Of a stretch of 42,571 bases of DNA, positions 18,309-37,502 are shown piece by piece (positions within the stretch are counted from its first letter, which is position 1; the number at the start of each line of letters is the position of its first letter). Location: positions 1 to 42,571 of the forward strand of contig JAPLZX010000022.1 of the NCBI GenBank assembly GCA_026394815.1, given 5' to 3'. A program made the translations under genes and the position numbers. This stretch comes from Candidatus Zambryskiibacteriota bacterium (GTDB lineage Bacteria > Patescibacteriota > Minisyncoccia > Phycocordibacterales > DATDWN01). The notes beneath the pieces are model-generated. The model saw nothing but the letters and a program-made list of their open reading frames with translations. It had not been told where the DNA came from and made no database searches.

Positions 18309-19565
18309 TTATAAAATTTTCAAAGCTTCTTCAGCTAACATTAACTCTGATTCACCTTCCGTTCTTTTTTTAACTTCCACCTTATTTTCTGCAACTGTTT
18401 TGTCGCTCACAACAAACCGAACAGGAATTCCAATCAAATCAGAATCTGCGAATTTTTCCCCCGCACGCAAATCGCGGTCATCATACAAAACCTCAATATT
18501 TTTCTTTTGCAAATCAGCATATAGTTTATCGGCAAAAGAAATTGTTTCTGTATTATCTCCAAGCCTAACAAGATGCACAGCAAAAGGAGAAACTTCTTTA
18601 GGCCAGACAATACCGTTATCATCTGACAAAAGTTCAACGATTGTACCCATAAGACGACCTAGGCCAATACCATAGGAACCCATAAAAACCAGTGTTTCTT
18701 CTCCTTTTTCATTTTTGTATTTCAAATCAAACGGTTCTGAAAATTTTGTTCCGAGAGTAAAAATATTACCAACTTCGATTGCTTTCTTTTGCTTAACCAA
18801 TGAAATATCCATATTCAAAGTTTGCAAAAGATCTTTTGAAAGAGGGTCATCCCAAAGTTCTTTATTTACGGCCTGTTTATTTTCTTCATCAAAATAGATA
18901 ACATCCTCCCCAGCATCACAAACGGTTTGAAATTCATGAGAAAATTTTGAAAAAGTTCCACCAGACGCATAGGTTACATATGTCTTATCTCCTATACCAA
19001 CACGATTAAAAACATTCTTATATGCCTCAGTAGCTTTAGTATAGAACTTAAGATGTTCTGTTTCATCTTTCGAAAACGAATACAAAGCTTTCCAGTAAAA
19101 CTCTCTCCCCCTTAAAATTCCGGATTTACTTCTCGCTTCGTTTCTGAAAATTTCTTTAAAATCATAAGGATAAACTGGCAAATCTTTATAAGAAGATACA
19201 TACTGTTTTAAAATATTCGAGTAGGCTTCTTCGTTAGTAAATGATAATCCAACTTCTCCTCCATTTTTTAATTTTGTTTTAAACCAGTTGTCTACTACAT
19301 TATCGTCCCACCTGTTTGACTTTTCCCATATTTCTTTGTTTTGAAATACAGATGTTTTCATTTCTATGCCTCCAATTGCATTCATTTCTTCTCTGATAAT
19401 ATTCTCAATCTTTTTTATTACATTTAAACCAAGAGGTAAATATGAATAAACTCCAGCTATTTCTTTGTGGATATAGCCACCTCTTATTAAAAGTTGTGCA
19501 TTTTTTGACGTTTCATCTGCCGGAGCTTCTCTGCGAGTTTTTGTAAAAAGTTGTGATTGACGCAT
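18309..19565 (-). CDS. proS: proline--tRNA ligase (short form without the INS editing domain)
   Basis: ProRS N-terminus (MRQSQLFTKTRREAPADETSKNAQLLIRGGYI), class II motifs and a C-terminal anticodon-binding domain. 418 aa. Confidence 0.9.
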   Translation of the reverse strand: MRQSQLFTKTRREAPADETSKNAQLLIRGGYIHKEIAGVYSYLPLGLNVIKKIENIIREEMNAIGGIEMKTSVFQNKEIWEKSNRWDDNVVDNWFKTKLKNGGEVGLSFTNEEAYSNILKQYVSSYKDLPVYPYDFKEIFRNEARSKSGILRGREFYWKALYSFSKDETEHLKFYTKATEAYKNVFNRVGIGDKTYVTYASGGTFSKFSHEFQTVCDAGEDVIYFDEENKQAVNKELWDDPLSKDLLQTLNMDISLVKQKKAIEVGNIFTLGTKFSEPFDLKYKNEKGEETLVFMGSYGIGLGRLMGTIVELLSDDNGIVWPKEVSPFAVHLVRLGDNTETISFADKLYADLQKKNIEVLYDDRDLRAGEKFADSDLIGIPVRFVVSDKTVAENKVEVKKRTEGESELMLAEEALKIL

Positions 19566-19598
19566 ATATCAATACTACATTAAAAAAATATTTTGAGC

Positions 19599-19716
19599 AA
19601 AAAAGCTGGCAAAGGCGCCAGCTTGGACGGGAGGGAAGGACATCGGCCATGAACACTCGGATGTGTCGACGACTTCGGGGAGACGTCGATTGCGAGGGGC
19701 ACATTCCTTCCCACCC
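19599..19716 (-). ncRNA. candidate ~118-nt GC-rich structured RNA ending in an intrinsic terminator, directly 5' of proS; class unknown
   Basis: A 12-bp closing stem, GGGUGGGAAGGA with UCCUUCCCUCCC. Inner helices AUGUG/CACAU and UCGACG/CGUCGA. An 8-bp terminator hairpin (19603-19624) plus U6. TATAGT lies just upstream of the first G. 62% GC in the hand-counted line 19621-19680. Confidence 0.45.
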
Positions 19717-19754
19717 AAGACTATATTCTCACAATCTAGGGATAAATCAAGTCT

Positions 19755-20849
19755 TTATAAAAGTTTAAATATATCGTGACCTGTAATAACCAGCATAAGT
19801 ATAATTAAAAAAGCAAATCCAATTCCATTTGCCCATTGAACAACTGCTGGCTTAATTGGTTTGCGAATAATTGCTTCAATCCCCACAAACAACAATCTCC
19901 CACCATCAAGAGCCGGAAAAGGTAAAAGGTTGATAACAGCAAGATTTATAGAAATAAGTGCAACTAAAAATAAAATGTACATAAAACCTAAATCATTTGC
20001 TTGTGAGACAATTTTTGCAATACCAACAGGACCAGCAACTTGAGAAAAATCCGATTTAAAGGTGATTGTCTTCCATAAAAAACCAACCAAACCGACTGTG
20101 GTACCTTTTGTTAAAATCCAAGTCGTATTAGCCCCCTCAATAAAAGCTAAGTGTATGGGAAGTTTGATAACTCCACTATCCATAACAATACCTATGGCCT
20201 TAGAACCTAATGTTGAATCATTTTCTGGCTTTACAAATATGATAGCTGAAGCCAAATTCCCTCGGTTATAAGTTACCTCTACTTCGCCTTTACTTTCCCC
20301 AATTACTTTTCTAATATTTTCGGGAGTTAAATCTTTTCCTTGTAAAGCCTCCACACCAGAAGAAATAGATATAATTTTATCTTCAGAAACTAACCCTGCT
20401 TTTTGGGCCGGAGAATTTGGAAGCACTTCTGTAATAACTAAACTTGTATCTCCGTTCTTTTCAGAACTAAGATAATTCATGGAAGAAGGAAGCCCAATCA
20501 TAAAACCGAGAGATATTAAAAGCCAAGCAAAGATAATATTAGAAGTAACCCCGGCTATCAAAACACTGGCCTGAACCCACTTTGGTTTATAAAGAAAACT
20601 TGTTGATTTATCGGCATCAGATATTTCTTCGGTGTGAGAATCCTCACCAAAAATTTTAACAAAGCCACCAAATGGTATTGCATTCAGAGTATAGGTTGTT
20701 TCTCCTATTTTTTTAGCAAAAATTTTTGGTGGAAATCCAAGTCCAAATTCATCCACACGAATCCCGGATTTTTTTGCGACAACAAAATGCCCAAGTTCGT
20801 GGACAAAAATTAACACAGCTAATATGATTATAAAAATGATTATGGACAT
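19755..20849 (-). CDS. rseP: RIP metalloprotease RseP (site-2 protease)
   Basis: HELGHF zinc motif, a PDZ domain and a C-terminal LDGG motif. Confidence 0.9.
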   Translation of the reverse strand: MSIIIFIIILAVLIFVHELGHFVVAKKSGIRVDEFGLGFPPKIFAKKIGETTYTLNAIPFGGFVKIFGEDSHTEEISDADKSTSFLYKPKWVQASVLIAGVTSNIIFAWLLISLGFMIGLPSSMNYLSSEKNGDTSLVITEVLPNSPAQKAGLVSEDKIISISSGVEALQGKDLTPENIRKVIGESKGEVEVTYNRGNLASAIIFVKPENDSTLGSKAIGIVMDSGVIKLPIHLAFIEGANTTWILTKGTTVGLVGFLWKTITFKSDFSQVAGPVGIAKIVSQANDLGFMYILFLVALISINLAVINLLPFPALDGGRLLFVGIEAIIRKPIKPAVVQWANGIGFAFLIILMLVITGHDIFKLL

Positions 20850-20881
20850 TTAATAATGTGTATAAATTAAGATTTTGTTGA

Positions 20882-20974
20882 GCTATGTCTCGAGAAGGGA
20901 CTTCGGAGCGCGACTGGCGCGAGACCGAGCCAAAGTCTAGCAAGACTTATGGCGTGCCCTTCGAGAGATATAGC
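20882..20974. other. 93-nt GC-rich three-helix palindromic element (ncRNA or selfish palindrome), in the frr-rseP spacer
   Basis: The outer stem is 10+6 bp (GCTATGTCTC..GAAGGG with CCCTTC..GAGATATAGC). Inner hairpins are AAGTCT-AGCA-AGACTT and GCGC..GCGC. No ORF. Confidence 0.35.
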
Positions 20975-20992
20975 GAGAAAAAAATTTTAATT

Positions 20993-21544
20993 TTACTCCG
21001 ATATCTCTTTTTCTTTCTTCACTAACATCCCATCAAGTACTCTATTTGTATCATCTAACATCTTTTGTAATTCTGTCTTCAACCTAAATTTATCATCCTC
21101 CGAAATAATACCTTCTTTTTCCTGTTTTTCAATGTCTTTCATTATTCTCTCTCTTTCTGTCCGAAGTGTAACTCGCGCATCCTCTAACTTTTGTCTGGCA
21201 ATTTTTATTAGACTGGTTCGCCTATCAGAAGTCAATTCTGGGAAGATAACTCTAATCCCCTTATCATCCACCGCCACAGATAATCCAAGATCTGATGTTA
21301 CTATCCCTTTTTCTATGGCCTTCACTTGAGACATATCCCACGGAGTGATACGAATCATCCGCGCATCTTCCATAGATATATTAGCAAGTTGAGTTATGGT
21401 CATATCCGAACCATAGGCTTCCACTTTGACACCATCAAGTATTGCGGGAGTCGCCCGCCCAGTACGAATGGTTGCAAATTCTTTCCTAAGCCACTCCTCT
21501 ATACCTTTAACATTTTGTCTAAGTGGTATGAAATTATAGGGCAT
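20993..21544 (-). CDS. frr: ribosome recycling factor
   Basis: Full-length RRF-like sequence (IRTGRATPAILDGVKVEAYG, LTSDRR). Confidence 0.95.
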   Translation of the reverse strand: MPYNFIPLRQNVKGIEEWLRKEFATIRTGRATPAILDGVKVEAYGSDMTITQLANISMEDARMIRITPWDMSQVKAIEKGIVTSDLGLSVAVDDKGIRVIFPELTSDRRTSLIKIARQKLEDARVTLRTERERIMKDIEKQEKEGIISEDDKFRLKTELQKMLDDTNRVLDGMLVKKEKEISE

Positions 21545-21569
21545 ATATTGCTATTATATCGTGAATTGA

Positions 21570-22268
21570 TTATACGGACAACATCACATTCTCTAATATC
21601 ATTTTTATTGGCGCTCCTCTGTCATATAAACTAGCGCGAGCAAATTCGCATATTTCAAGTGCTTTATGAGATTTTTCTACTCCTTGTTTATATAATTCAG
21701 TTTCAATTTGATTGAGAAAAGCGATAGCATCTTGTTTGGTTTTATCTTCATCACTTATAGCATCTGTAATTTCTTTTACTTTGGCCAGTCGTTCCGATAA
21801 CCCCAAATCTAATATTCTTTTTTTACTTCCAAGGTTTGCCCTTGGAATAACCATAATGTGCATGCGAGAACGAAGAGTTGGGAGAAGAATATCTTGAGGA
21901 GAAATAATAAAAAAATGTGTGCCAGAAGTTGGTTCTTCAAACACTTTGAGTAATGAATTTTGTGCTTCTTCCGTAATGAAATCCGCTTGAATAATAAAAA
22001 CTTTCAGCCCTGTGGTGAGCTTTGCTCTACTACTGGGATTTTCTTCGAAACTTTTTCTTTCTTGTGCATTAGCAATTTCTCTAGCACTTTCAATATTTAA
22101 TGTATTATATTTCCCGTGCCAAAAATCAGGGTTGCCAGAAGTTTCCACTCCGACCACAGCTCCTAAAAAATTTTTCAATTCTAAAAAAATCTCTTCTCCC
22201 TCTCCCACCAAAAAATAAGCATGATGTAAATCTCCGGATTTTTTATATGAATTAATAAGTTGTTCCAT
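21570..22268 (-). CDS. holB: DNA polymerase III delta' subunit-like clamp-loader protein
   Basis: HHAYFLVG, KVFIIQADFITEEAQNSLLKVFEEP and LPTLRSR. Start set at ATG 22268, because the 27-aa extension to 22349 crosses a GC-rich hairpin plus T-run. Confidence 0.7.
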   Translation of the reverse strand: MEQLINSYKKSGDLHHAYFLVGEGEEIFLELKNFLGAVVGVETSGNPDFWHGKYNTLNIESAREIANAQERKSFEENPSSRAKLTTGLKVFIIQADFITEEAQNSLLKVFEEPTSGTHFFIISPQDILLPTLRSRMHIMVIPRANLGSKKRILDLGLSERLAKVKEITDAISDEDKTKQDAIAFLNQIETELYKQGVEKSHKALEICEFARASLYDRGAPIKMILENVMLSV

Positions 22269-22348
22269 TAGTGTAGTATAACAAAAAAGGAAATGCCCCT
22301 CACGACGAGAGGCAGCTTTTCTCAGTTTCCTCGGGCTGGGATAAAGCA

Positions 22349-22549
22349 TCAGGAGCTACGGGGTTTTTCGAAACGAGTTTGAAAGACACGCTGAGACTCA
22401 ATTTCCTTGGCCTGAAGAGCCAGAAGTTCCTCTCTAGCCTTAGTGATCCCAGCTTGGATGAACTTCTTTTGCTCTTCTGACATGGGTTTCAAAACAATGT
22501 CCCCGGATTTACATCCCAAAGGTTTGCTCACAATCCCCCTCCATTCCAT
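22349..22549 (-). CDS. hypothetical 66-aa protein in a GC-rich patch
   Basis: An ORF in a local GC spike between mreB2 and holB. TATAAT lies 5 nt upstream of the ATG, so the mRNA may be leaderless. No motif was recognised. Confidence 0.4.
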   Translation of the reverse strand: MEWRGIVSKPLGCKSGDIVLKPMSEEQKKFIQAGITKAREELLALQAKEIESQRVFQTRFEKPRSS

Positions 22550-22593
22550 CAGAGATTATAGTATATATTCAATAAATCTCCTAAACAACAAGT

Positions 22594-23607
22594 CTAGCGT
22601 TTGGAAATAATAAGTTTTTTATAGGTATCTAAATGCTCCAATGCAATCCCCGTCCCTTTAACCACACAATAAAGTGGGTCTTTGGCCAAAACTGCCTTCA
22701 CACCAATACGACGAAAAACTAATTCCGGCATATTGCGAAGTTGAGATGTTCCCCCAGTCATTATAATTCCTTGGTCAATAATATCTGATGAAAGTTCTGG
22801 TGGAGTTTCTTGTAAAACTTCCTTGATTGCTTTTATCATTTCTCTTAAATCTTTACTGATGGCTTTGACAATTTCATTTGTTTTTATTTCTACACTTCGT
22901 GGAAGTCCTGTAACAAAATCTCGTCCTTTTATCATCATAGAAAGTTCTTCATCCAGAGGAATTGCTGAACCAATATTTATTTTTATATCTTCTGCTGTTT
23001 TATCACCTATACCAAGATTGAACATCTTTTTTATATAATCGGTAATTGCATAATCAATTTTGTTTCCGGCACATTTAACCGAAGTAGACGCCACAATACC
23101 TCCGAGAGAAATAACCGCTATATCTGTCGTTCCCCCACCAATATCTACTATCATGTGCCCCAGGGCTTCGTGAATTGGAATACCCGCACCTATAGCAGCA
23201 AGAATTGGTTCTTTGACAACATATGCGTTTTTTGCTCCCGCTCGTATAGCCGCTTCTATCACTGCTCTGCGTTCTGTAGAAGTCACTCCTGCTGGTACGG
23301 AAACTAAAACTTCTGGTTTAACAAAATTCCATTTGCCTAGTGCTTTATCCATATAATAACGAAGCATTGCCTCGGTTACTCTATAATCAGCTATGACACC
23401 ATCTTTCATTGGACGATAAGCTACGATGTTTTCCGGTGTACGACCTATCATTTCTTTGGCTTCAATACCTATGGCTAAAATACGATTATCCTCTTCGGAA
23501 ACAGCAACCACAGATGGCTCATTTAGGACAACTCCCCTACCTGGAACAAAAACCAATATATTAGCCGTACCGAGATCTATGCCTAGTTTTTTTGAGAAAA
23601 TGCTCAT
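22594..23607 (-). CDS. mreB: MreB/Mbl-family actin homolog (second paralog)
   Basis: LGIDLGTANI, DIGGGTTD and GGTSQLRN. Confidence 0.9.
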   Translation of the reverse strand: MSIFSKKLGIDLGTANILVFVPGRGVVLNEPSVVAVSEEDNRILAIGIEAKEMIGRTPENIVAYRPMKDGVIADYRVTEAMLRYYMDKALGKWNFVKPEVLVSVPAGVTSTERRAVIEAAIRAGAKNAYVVKEPILAAIGAGIPIHEALGHMIVDIGGGTTDIAVISLGGIVASTSVKCAGNKIDYAITDYIKKMFNLGIGDKTAEDIKINIGSAIPLDEELSMMIKGRDFVTGLPRSVEIKTNEIVKAISKDLREMIKAIKEVLQETPPELSSDIIDQGIIMTGGTSQLRNMPELVFRRIGVKAVLAKDPLYCVVKGTGIALEHLDTYKKLIISKR

Positions 23608-23639
23608 ATGGTCTATAATAGACCTATACTATAACTGAT

Positions 23640-24428
23640 ATGGAAGATAATGTAAAAACCCACATTAAAGAAAATGAATTCCTATATACAACTATTATTT
23701 TGGCTGTTTTGATTATTGTTTTGATTATTTTTGGTTATAAAAAAGGATATAGATTTCAAGAAAATTTTATGATTGGTAAACTCGGCTCTTTATCTCTTGT
23801 GATTGCTATGCCTCAAACAAATATTTTTATTGATGAAAATAAAAAAATTGTAACCTCGCAAGAAAACGAAATTGTAAAATTTTCACTATCTCCAAGAGAA
23901 CATACTATTATAATTTCTCGCGATGGATATTTCCCTTGGAAAAAAGATTTCCTTATGCAAAGTGAAGGAAATATAAATTTTTCACCGGTTTTTGTTTCCA
24001 GTAATCCGTCTGGGTCTATCATCACAAAAAACGATCCAGAGTTTTGGAAAATTAGAAATAAAATTATCATTGACCCATTGCCAACAAAAAATACTCCTCG
24101 TATTTCAAAAGACGGTTTAGTCAAACTTTGGATAGATGGTAATGCTGTAAAAGTAGAGATTGCAAGTAATATGGGTTCAACAACACCTCCACAGATAAAA
24201 ACAGTAATACAACCAGATTCGGCTATACGAAATTTATATTTTTATAAAGACAGATCCGATGTTATTGTGTTTTCAATAAATAATTCTATATACGCCATAG
24301 AGGTAGATAAAGAAGGTACACAAAATTTCTTACCAATATATAAAGGCACAGCACCTAGTTTTATTGAGGGTGATTCAAATTATATTTATGTGTTAGATGG
24401 TGAGACACTGATGCAGGTGATTATTTAA
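23640..24428 (+). CDS. hypothetical membrane-anchored protein (possible PEGA-like beta domain)
   Basis: N-terminal TM segment. IIISRDGYFPWKKDF resembles a PEGA motif. Backbone-like composition. Confidence 0.65.
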   Translation: MEDNVKTHIKENEFLYTTIILAVLIIVLIIFGYKKGYRFQENFMIGKLGSLSLVIAMPQTNIFIDENKKIVTSQENEIVKFSLSPREHTIIISRDGYFPWKKDFLMQSEGNINFSPVFVSSNPSGSIITKNDPEFWKIRNKIIIDPLPTKNTPRISKDGLVKLWIDGNAVKVEIASNMGSTTPPQIKTVIQPDSAIRNLYFYKDRSDVIVFSINNSIYAIEVDKEGTQNFLPIYKGTAPSFIEGDSNYIYVLDGETLMQVII

Positions 24429-24433
24429 CCATG

Positions 24434-24563
24434 AATCAAAAATTTCTTTCTCGTTGTATCTCTCGTGGAGCACGGATATTTTTCTGCTGAAAAATTCCTC
24501 GAGCTCCCTCCGTCGAGCGTCGCTAGTCTCCACTCGAGACACAACTCAACGAAATTTTTGATT
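24434..24563 (+). repeat. 130-nt compound palindrome: an AT-rich 13-bp stem enclosing a GC-rich ~93-nt hairpin element
   Basis: AATCAAAAATTTC (24434-46) pairs with GAAATTTTTGATT (24551-63). Inside, GTTGT/ACAAC, TCTC/GAGA and GTGGAG/CTCCAC stems enclose two smaller hairpins. A T-rich tail follows. Confidence 0.5.
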
Positions 24564-34672: not shown

Positions 34673-34963
34673 ATGCTCAGAGGAAATCTGGGACTATCTG
34701 CCATCAGGGAAGTTGATGATATTGCTGGCAGTGCCACTCAGGAACACGAATTGTTTGTGCGAATCAGAATTTGCCAAGCAAGAGTGATCTTAGACAACGC
34801 TGAAACCAGCCCAGGTCAGCGTGTGTGTCGGGATTGCGGAGATGAAATCTCGCAGAAACGACTGATGGTCGTTCCCGGTGCAATTCGTTGCACCACCTGT
34901 GAAGGAATATGGGAGAGGACTCACCCGAAGATTCCTCCTCCTCGTCACTTACAAAGTCGGTAG
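34673..34963 (+). CDS. TraR/DksA-family C4 zinc-finger protein
   Basis: CRDCGDEISQKRLMVVPGAIRCTTCE (CxxC-17-CxxC), AAGGAG upstream of the ATG, and a GC-rich patch. Confidence 0.75.
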   Translation: MLRGNLGLSAIREVDDIAGSATQEHELFVRIRICQARVILDNAETSPGQRVCRDCGDEISQKRLMVVPGAIRCTTCEGIWERTHPKIPPPRHLQSR

Positions 34964-35022
34964 TAGTCCCCCCGCCCCATCCTTTTGAGATCTACCGGCT
35001 GGATCCCAGCCCAGCCGTCGCC

Positions 35023-35060
35023 GCCTCGTCGTCGTAACACCGTCGTCGAGGCTTTTCTCT
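35023..35060 (+). terminator. hairpin terminator after the TraR-like gene
   Basis: GCCTCGTCGTCG pairs with CGTCGTCGAGGC (12 positions, two U-U mismatches), followed by TTTT. Confidence 0.55.
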
Positions 35061-37014: not shown

Positions 37015-37227
37015 ATGGGGTCAGAAGAATTCCGTCATGTTCCAGTCCTGGTCGCTAGAGATTTGGCGAATGCCGTCATTGCGCGAGCCCTCGCCGACGC
37101 ACTCAACCCGACCAACTCTCTCAAAGTCCGCGAAGATGCCAAGGAGTTCCTCAGGCGCGACAACACCACCTGTACGATGTATTGCGCAAAGGCAGGTATC
37201 GACCCGCGGAGCATCTGTCTCCGCTAG
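37015..37227 (+). CDS. hypothetical 70-aa protein in a GC-rich patch
   Basis: TTTACA-17-TACTAT promoter, a structured leader and a strong terminator. No motif was recognised. Confidence 0.4.
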   Translation: MGSEEFRHVPVLVARDLANAVIARALADALNPTNSLKVREDAKEFLRRDNTTCTMYCAKAGIDPRSICLR

Positions 37228-37247
37228 GCGAGCTTGCTGTTCACCGG

Positions 37248-37284
37248 CCTCCGTCCCGATTTTTGGGGCGGAGGTTGTTCTTTT
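37248..37284 (+). terminator. intrinsic terminator
   Basis: CCTCCGTCCC pairs with GGGGCGGAGG (10 bp, one G-U), followed by TTGTTCTTTT. Confidence 0.6.
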
Positions 37285-37286
37285 AA

Positions 37287-37502
37287 TTACATTTGTTCTT
37301 TAGGAACACAATCCTTGCAAGATTTTTTGTGTGTAAATACTAAATAAACAGCAGATAATCCAACTAAGATATAAATGAGTTTAGCTAACATGGAACCAAC
37401 TCCAAAAACACTGTCCACCAAATTATAACCAAAACCCACTAAAAGCCAGTTCAATCCTCCGATTACTAGAAGAGTGAAACTGACCATGTGTAATATTTTC
37501 AT
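37287..37502 (-). CDS. DUF378-family small membrane protein
   Basis: LLVIGGLNWLLVGFGYNLV is the DUF378 signature. Confidence 0.75.
   Translation of the reverse strand: MKILHMVSFTLLVIGGLNWLLVGFGYNLVDSVFGVGSMLAKLIYILVGLSAVYLVFTHKKSCKDCVPKEQM

Follow-up and report, generated by a model that had tools for sequence, protein, structure and literature searches.

The spacer between rseP and proS in a Candidatus Zambryskiibacteriota genome contains, on balance, a stand-alone gene for a small RNA of an undescribed family, about 115–118 nt long, encoded on the minus strand between frr-rseP and a probably leaderless proS, and restricted to the genus, where it would represent a divergent member of a group of RNAs here named class A. 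The element features a structure signal and a terminator, is followed by a separate proS promoter, keeps its position relative to the flanking genes, has orthologues whose helices covary, and is present in a single copy. It is probably a real orphan small RNA gene, functional but dispensable, and fast-evolving. The sequence analyzed, referred to as the window, is the whole contig JAPLZX010000022.1 (42,571 nt); all positions are given on it.

CPR/Patescibacteria genomes measure about 0.4–2 Mb. The genome under study, that of a member of the Parcubacteria (Paceibacteria), is of 654 kb, with a GC content of 35% and a completeness of 96%. Along the minus strand of the window the order is holB, frr, rseP, the RNA-bearing spacer, proS, mreB, mreC and PBP2. 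The prolyl-tRNA synthetase (18309–19565) is 418 aa long: Pfam recognizes only a class II core plus an anticodon-binding domain, and detects neither an editing nor a C-terminal domain. In a DNA run from the source lake, the region 18926–24470 is recovered as one contig with an even depth of about 21, differing from the window at a single position (22387); the rseP-proS element is therefore not an assembly artefact. The relevant features, in order of transcription, are the following.

19755–19757, minus strand: stop codon (TAA) of rseP, which encodes an M50 site-2 protease (reading frame 19755–20849)
19720–19750, minus strand: candidate promoter of the RNA, TTGATT (19750–19745), a 19-nt spacer and TATAGT (19725–19720)
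19629–19716, minus strand: RNA body, a rod of 88–92 nt, defined by minimum free energy and z-score, by covariance-model alignment to the orthologues and by the pair table
19716–19705 with 19640–19629, minus strand: helix P1, GGGUGGGAAGGA paired with UCCUUCCCUCCC
19696–19693 with 19659–19656, minus strand: helix P3, CUCG paired with CGAG
19689–19684 with 19671–19666, minus strand: helix P4, UCGACG paired with CGUCGA
19683–19672, minus strand: C-rich apical loop of 12 nt, UCUCCCCGAAGU
19599–19624, minus strand: intrinsic terminator, a 9-bp stem (19624–19603) with five G-C pairs, a 4-nt loop and T6
19572–19600, minus strand: proS promoter, TTGCTC (19600–19595), 17 nt and TAGTAT (19577–19572)
19563–19565, minus strand: proS ATG, at the seventh base past the -10 box
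18309–19565, minus strand: proS reading frame

The ability of the element to fold was evaluated on a 126-nt stretch, for which a minimum free energy of -50.6 kcal/mol is predicted, as compared with -34.8 ± 4.0 for 200 dinucleotide shuffles (z = -4.0); none of the 200 shuffles is as stable. The local GC content reaches 0.63, against 0.35 for the genome; the first-pass annotation of the window had counted 62% in 19621–19680. That annotation had also described a TATAGT box followed by a segment which pairs downstream, and a UCGACG/CGUCGA helix enclosing a 12-nt loop, and both are present: GGGUGGGAAGGA begins three bases past TATAGT and forms, with UCCUUCCCUCCC, a 12-bp closing stem (11 Watson-Crick pairs and one U-U), while the second helix corresponds to P4. 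An AUGUG/CACAU helix, proposed at the same time, had to be abandoned, as it cannot be nested with CCUCG/CGAG, the pairing favored by both the minimum free energy structure and the orthologues. The terminator, described as an 8-bp hairpin with U6 located 34 nt before the proS ATG (19565), is correct in the U run and in the distance, but its stem is of 9 bp. The statement that the region holds no ORF does not stand in this form: mechanical ORFs of 44–63 aa span the region, though none has a Pfam match above the cut-off, and no ORF comparable to them is seen by eye in the orthologous RNAs.

As stable a fold (-52.7 kcal/mol) is predicted for the complementary strand, so that the assignment of the RNA to the minus strand rests, within the window, on the terminator, called by the terminator scan on that strand only, and on the orthologues. 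An RNA with its own promoter had been proposed as well. The terminator half of that proposal, and the novelty of the RNA, are upheld by the terminator call, by covariation in the orthologues and by the comparison with Rfam 15, in which the region 19450–19850 yields no match at the gathering score or at E <= 10. The promoter half fares less well: the candidate is weak, its boxes being 19 nt apart, and the consensus promoter scan passes it over, yet it aligns with better promoters of the orthologues. Since the promoter is poor and escapes the scan, the rseP mRNA may be the only transcript which contains the RNA, as its 3' end.

Within the genome the element is single copy: BLASTN, and blastn-short at word size 7 and E <= 50, return its own locus only. 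The same 126-nt stretch, used as a BLASTN query, finds nothing in 62 genomes of the family. A search for exact complementarity of 10–12 nt to the loop, to the 3' junction and to the tail returned only the opposite strand of the element itself and one 12-mer expected by chance. Three metatranscriptomes from the same lake, compared with 20 kb of the window, give only stray matches of 18–39 nt, uninformative on expression.

Downstream of the RNA, the -35 box of the proS promoter overlaps the T tract of the terminator. The proS mRNA is probably leaderless, judging from the position of the ATG, 6–7 nt past the -10 box. The regions upstream of proS were collected from 58 further genomes belonging to the GTDB family of this organism, and in about 53 of them the rseP-proS spacer is readable. 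Under a strict pattern, 14 of 29 relatives have TTG(C/A)(T/C)C-17-TAnnAT ending 6–7 nt ahead of the proS ATG. The promoter is kept in spacers of 42–52 nt which carry no insert (L006, L008, L019, L026), and in two of them (L006, L008) the rseP stop codon overlaps the proS -35 box. Being present both with and without the RNA, this promoter is taken to drive proS in either case; since it lies downstream of the terminator and leaves no leader, the terminator cannot act on proS by control of read-through. The same geometry, a TA(G/C)TAT -10 box with TTGCTC or TTGACC 17 nt upstream, recurs across the loci L009 to L029. In six loci (L004, L005, L012, L017, L025, L052) an AT-rich, partly palindromic insert of about 100–130 nt separates the proS promoter from the ATG, and would give the leaderless proS a folded leader; in L004 and L005 this insert is of 132 nt and 97% identical.

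The adjacency of rseP and proS is kept in most of the family. Their spacer, over the approximately 53 examples available, varies from 15 to about 780 nt and differs in contents between species, the long ones containing GC-rich, strongly folded segments. A sense-strand terminator ends all of the inserts read (18 out of 18), its T tract running into the proS -35 box. Promoters scoring at least 9/12 are found on the sense strand in 17 of 34 insert-bearing spacers, typically directly before the folded domain, as compared with 8 on the antisense strand. By eye and by BLAST, the units which occupy this slot fall into at least three kinds: class A, a rod of about 80–190 nt; class B, about 150 nt long, beginning with GGAAGCGGG and ending with a C-rich tail (L013, L016, L021, L024, L028, L029); and class C, of about 190 nt and two domains (L010, L012, L014/L063, L027, L047, L064, L066). 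Classes B and C are defined from folds and BLAST results alone. Four loci (L028, L047, L013, L024) contain tandem double units, each with its own promoter and terminator; their order is constant, class A always adjoining proS (C+A in L047, B+A in L028). When the spacer RNAs of the relatives were compared with Rfam (two sets, of 20 and 19 loci), no match was obtained even at E <= 1.

Class A is best characterized in four species of the same genus (G031, G039, G037, G002; the core loci are L020, L022, L044 and L045), which share a common hairpin of 80 nt (alignment A2). This is composed of an 11-bp outer stem, a UUGACU/AGUCGA helix with a bulge on the 3' side, a covarying 4-bp inner helix and a short apical helix closed by an invariant CCUAGA loop; on its 3' side, YGACGA, a second small hairpin and the terminator follow. 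In a MAFFT alignment of the four core orthologues, not fitted to the structure, 97.8% of the cells are paired and 8 pairs are compensatory, a result equaled by none of 500 shuffles, while slid controls pair at about 40%. The same fold is independently predicted by RNAalifold. The occurrence of G-U pairs on this strand is consistent with an RNA, rather than a palindrome in DNA. The orthologues are preceded by promoters of the form TTGAT(A/T)-16-TA(G/A)A(G/T)T, for example TTGATA-16-TAGAGT, scoring 9/12.

A covariance model, R1, built from these four species, finds one copy per genome in each of them. Run on 63 genomes of the family, it recovers no more than its training sequences; 151 genomes of the order, as well as 80 loci taken from metagenomes, gave no match. 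A descriptor search with the class A motifs and the closing stem, applied to all fetched loci, yields the known members and AT-rich noise only. Alignment A3, made with the model, includes antisense rows too. The core hairpins, together with those of L031 and L047, contain the string TTGACT-17-TAGAAC, with the first hexamer located in a helix and the second falling within the invariant apical loop; the arrangement may be accidental, may represent a DNA promoter inside the element, or may mimic a promoter at the RNA level. A K-turn was considered for the conserved internal loop and rejected, as the GA pairs are, by eye, out of register.

The window RNA lies in the same slot as the class A RNAs, downstream of the rseP stop codon and ahead of the proS -35 box, on the same strand and with its terminator abutting that box. 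When 46 kb were searched with R1 without filters, it was the best match outside the training set, at 17.5 bits and E 0.03–0.1, a weak result by itself, below the acceptance level if synteny is ignored. The match covers the full length of the model and places all four helices; both its strand and its location, in the syntenic position, are those expected. In a plain MAFFT alignment of whole spacers several features fall into line: the -35 box TTGATTTAT, which immediately follows the rseP stop codon, the -10 region, the 5'-terminal part of the RNA (AGTC..GGGTGGG), the CCUCG...AUCCGAGUG helix and the proS promoter. A hand alignment of the five short RNAs, fitted to the structure, has 112 of 115 cells paired, with 15 of the 23 pairs changed on both sides and ten G-U pairs on the minus-strand RNA. 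The core-invariant motifs, namely the CCUAGA loop and UUGACU with GAAC, are missing from the window RNA; where they stand in the orthologues, it carries the 12-nt loop UCUCCCCGAAGU and AUGUG / CGAUG. Sequence searches link it to no class A member. Its class A homology is thus composed of a weak model score, synteny and short aligned blocks, and with moderate confidence it is interpreted as a shortened, divergent, single-copy class A orthologue. The loss of the invariant loop and of the internal-loop motifs suggests that it either works differently or drifts.

A sister species (G003), whose ProS is 81% identical, has in its spacer a 190-nt version of the RNA, collinear with the window and sharing with it both the GUCUCCC loop and the terminator stem GCUGGCGC. 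In the nearest relatives the slot contains no RNA: this is the case of the loci L003, L004, L006 and L008 and of the metagenome contigs L076, L077 and L099; the genomes listed among these relatives are G041, G018, G029 and G027. Among metagenome contigs the highest ProS identity to the window is 77%, and the closest ones have spacers of 33–35 nt. BLASTN, that is at the level of sequence similarity, did not find the RNA of the sister species elsewhere in five near relatives which lack it at the slot. That these relatives do without the RNA indicates that it is dispensable; a neutral passenger would give the same pattern of absence.

As a stand-alone gene, the element would be transcribed from its own weak promoter, beginning at or near G19716, in addition to any transcription as part of the rseP tail. 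The transcript is predicted to form a GC-rich rod: pairing of its two ends (P1) encloses three shorter helices and an apical loop rich in C. It would stop at its own intrinsic terminator, around 19599. It may act in trans, either by pairing of the exposed C-rich loop with other RNAs or by offering the conserved internal-loop region to a protein partner. One cis effect seems likely, namely that the terminator shields proS from rseP read-through.

The main rival to a stand-alone gene is that rod and terminator form only the structured 3' end of the frr-rseP operon, an mRNA tail which protects against 3' exonucleases and prevents read-through into proS and which may leave a stable 3'-UTR-derived fragment, with or without a function of its own. 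This reading, less probable than a separate gene and still to be taken seriously, draws on the start of the element just 38 nt past the rseP stop codon, on the same strand, on the weakness of its promoter, which the scan does not call, and on the insert-free spacers of L006 and L008, which have no terminator between rseP and proS, so that a terminator is what the insert adds. It leaves unexplained the tandem units, each provided with promoter and terminator (L028, L047, L013, L024), and the recognizable promoters found in the orthologues directly before the rod; conserved loops and covarying inner helices, moreover, go beyond what a protective hairpin needs.

Next comes the interpretation of the element as a neutral or selfish GC-rich insert, a decayed foreign cassette or palindromic element sitting in a permissive slot and now without function. 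The slot is indeed highly variable (15 to about 780 nt, with species-specific contents), the element is absent from the nearest relatives, its outer stem resembles terminal inverted repeats and its antisense strand folds equally well. The same genome, furthermore, holds a GC-rich sequence (24467–24555) with a roughly 6-fold excess of depth and variant contigs. In size and composition the rseP-proS element does recall MITE, REP and Correia-like palindromic elements, as a GC-rich intergenic insert of about 90–100 nt with complementary ends. It differs from them in being single copy (a search at word size 7 reveals no diverged copies either), in its flat depth (about 21) and in an orientation which is always that of the flanking genes; compensatory changes, together with G-U pairs possible on one strand only, preserve the helices of its syntenic orthologues, and in tandem units the order of classes is constant, with class A beside proS. 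A neutral insert is accordingly considered improbable.

The GC-rich hairpin element at 24467–24555 is a case of its own: its depth is 122, against about 21 around it, short variant contigs of it occur in the source metagenome, and a 39-nt piece recurs in an unrelated metatranscriptome contig of 877 nt. In these respects it resembles a repeated or mobile element, which the rseP-proS RNA does not.

Of very low probability is a diverged housekeeping RNA which escaped Rfam, be it SRP (4.5S) RNA, a miniature 6S-like RNA or a Y-like RNA. SRP RNA is marked by its domain IV loops and by a GNRA tetraloop; the window RNA shares with the 4.5S, or small SRP, RNA (RF00169) the GC-rich rod shape, the length of about 100 nt, the paired ends, the single copy, the terminator of its own and the setting in an AT-rich genome, but lacks the domain IV motifs and any match to the model, and is missing in close relatives, which is unexpected for a housekeeping RNA. 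Neither RF00169 nor RF01854 has a match in the window or in the genome, so that SRP RNA, like 6S RNA, is undetected in this organism, a circumstance which would leave room for a diverged version. The protein partners are undetected as well: PF00448 and PF02978 (SRP54 GTPase and Ffh M domain) were not found in the genome, nor was a DTAGR motif in any frame. SRP54-type GTPases (Ffh, FtsY) were not found in 63 genomes of the family, 60 of other families of the order and 40 of the rest of the phylum, nor was small SRP RNA in the phylum sample, with positive controls in both searches. For Parcubacteria, ffh and ffs have both been reported as undetectable (Nelson and Stegen 2015, PMC4508563). That reported loss is slightly extended here, by the lack of FtsY and by the sampling across the phylum.

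As for 6S RNA (RF00013), no model match is found in the genome. 6S RNA is about 180 nt long, with a closing stem, a large central bubble and a terminal stem. The resemblance lies in the long closing stem which pairs the ends, and in the hexamers similar to -35 and -10 boxes, 17 nt apart (TTGACT-17-TAGAAC), inside the four core orthologue hairpins. The window RNA, however, lacks those promoter-like motifs, measures 92 nt, about half of 6S RNA, shows no large central bubble in either the minimum free energy or the consensus fold, and belongs to a family which is not universal in the genus. A Y RNA of the YrlA type finds no support, as no TROVE/Ro protein (PF05731) was found in the genome and the window RNA has no match in Rfam. 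The 5S rRNA is elsewhere (C19:8643–8748, 81 bits with RF00001, with no match at the locus), and so are RNase P RNA and tmRNA. The initial exclusions of SRP RNA and 5S rRNA, made from motifs alone, are thus borne out.

Stand-alone, intrinsically terminated small RNAs with C-rich loops are known in the RsaE/RoxS type. The window RNA is likewise a small independent unit, with a stable hairpin presenting a C-rich loop (UCUCCCC) followed by a terminator; it differs in having no similarity to them in sequence or in model (Rfam, E <= 10) and no complementary target found; the usual target of such RNAs, the Shine-Dalgarno sequence, may be rare here, as proS appears to be leaderless.

A bolder reading is regarded as highly unlikely: the slot would be a conserved 'nursery' of several unrelated structured RNA genes in Patescibacteria, in which class A, given the TTGACT-17-TAGAAC of the core hairpins, would act as a miniature decoy of RNA polymerase or sigma factor, and the window copy would be a derived form whose specificity has changed.

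The first-pass annotation had suggested a transcription-attenuation leader; such control of proS, or a riboswitch responding to proline or tRNA-Pro, can hardly be maintained: a strong terminator upstream of an aminoacyl-tRNA synthetase gene, the proline codon CCU at the start of the orthologue loops and the CCC/CCG contained in the window loop speak in its favor, against a conserved proS promoter located past the terminator and kept where the RNA is absent, a probably leaderless start, no alternative antiterminator pairing seen, no T-box match at E <= 10 in 19450–19850, and a UGGN acceptor-binding bulge present, and not conserved, in only one of the four orthologues. The T-box idea in particular was rejected for want of a conserved acceptor-binding motif and for the downstream promoter. 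In T-box RNAs, stem I carries a specifier loop, the antiterminator contains the T-box sequence, and the regulated mRNA carries the terminator within its 5' leader, no promoter intervening before the gene. Like T-box (RF00230) and other aminoacyl-tRNA synthetase attenuators, the window RNA is structured and is placed, with an intrinsic terminator, directly upstream of a synthetase gene; unlike them, it has neither T-box sequence nor specifier architecture, is less than half as long, and precedes a gene with its own promoter after the terminator and a start without leader. The T-box covariance model has no match in the whole genome, while control genomes are positive, in agreement with the earlier remark that T-box hallmarks are lacking.

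No paper on 6S or other small RNAs of CPR/Patescibacteria was found in the literature searched. A single-copy structured RNA family, backed by covariation and housed in a slot where RNAs recur, offers a concrete entry point to the small RNAs of these bacteria. The family could be entered in RNA databases, so that such spacers would no longer be annotated as empty, and its members could be searched for in metatranscriptomes. A tempting mis-annotation, that of a proS attenuator, is corrected, and proS of this lineage is documented as probably leaderless. Taken alone the finding is modest, as close relatives lack the RNA; lineage-specific orphan small RNAs are common.

Other GC-rich segments of the window were also noted. 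The frr-rseP spacer (20875–20978) contains a second GC-rich element, of about 80–90 nt and closed by UCUCGAAGGG/CCCUUCUCGAGA, which is dissimilar to the rseP-proS RNA and has neither a downstream terminator nor a clear promoter. On the plus strand, two GC-rich islands (34673–35060 and 37015–37290) appear to encode small proteins, and a terminator of its own follows each; in one of them there are, by eye, paired CxxC motifs like those of a TraR/DksA-type zinc finger. As these two islands appear to be protein-coding, the GC-rich islands of this genome are not all RNAs.
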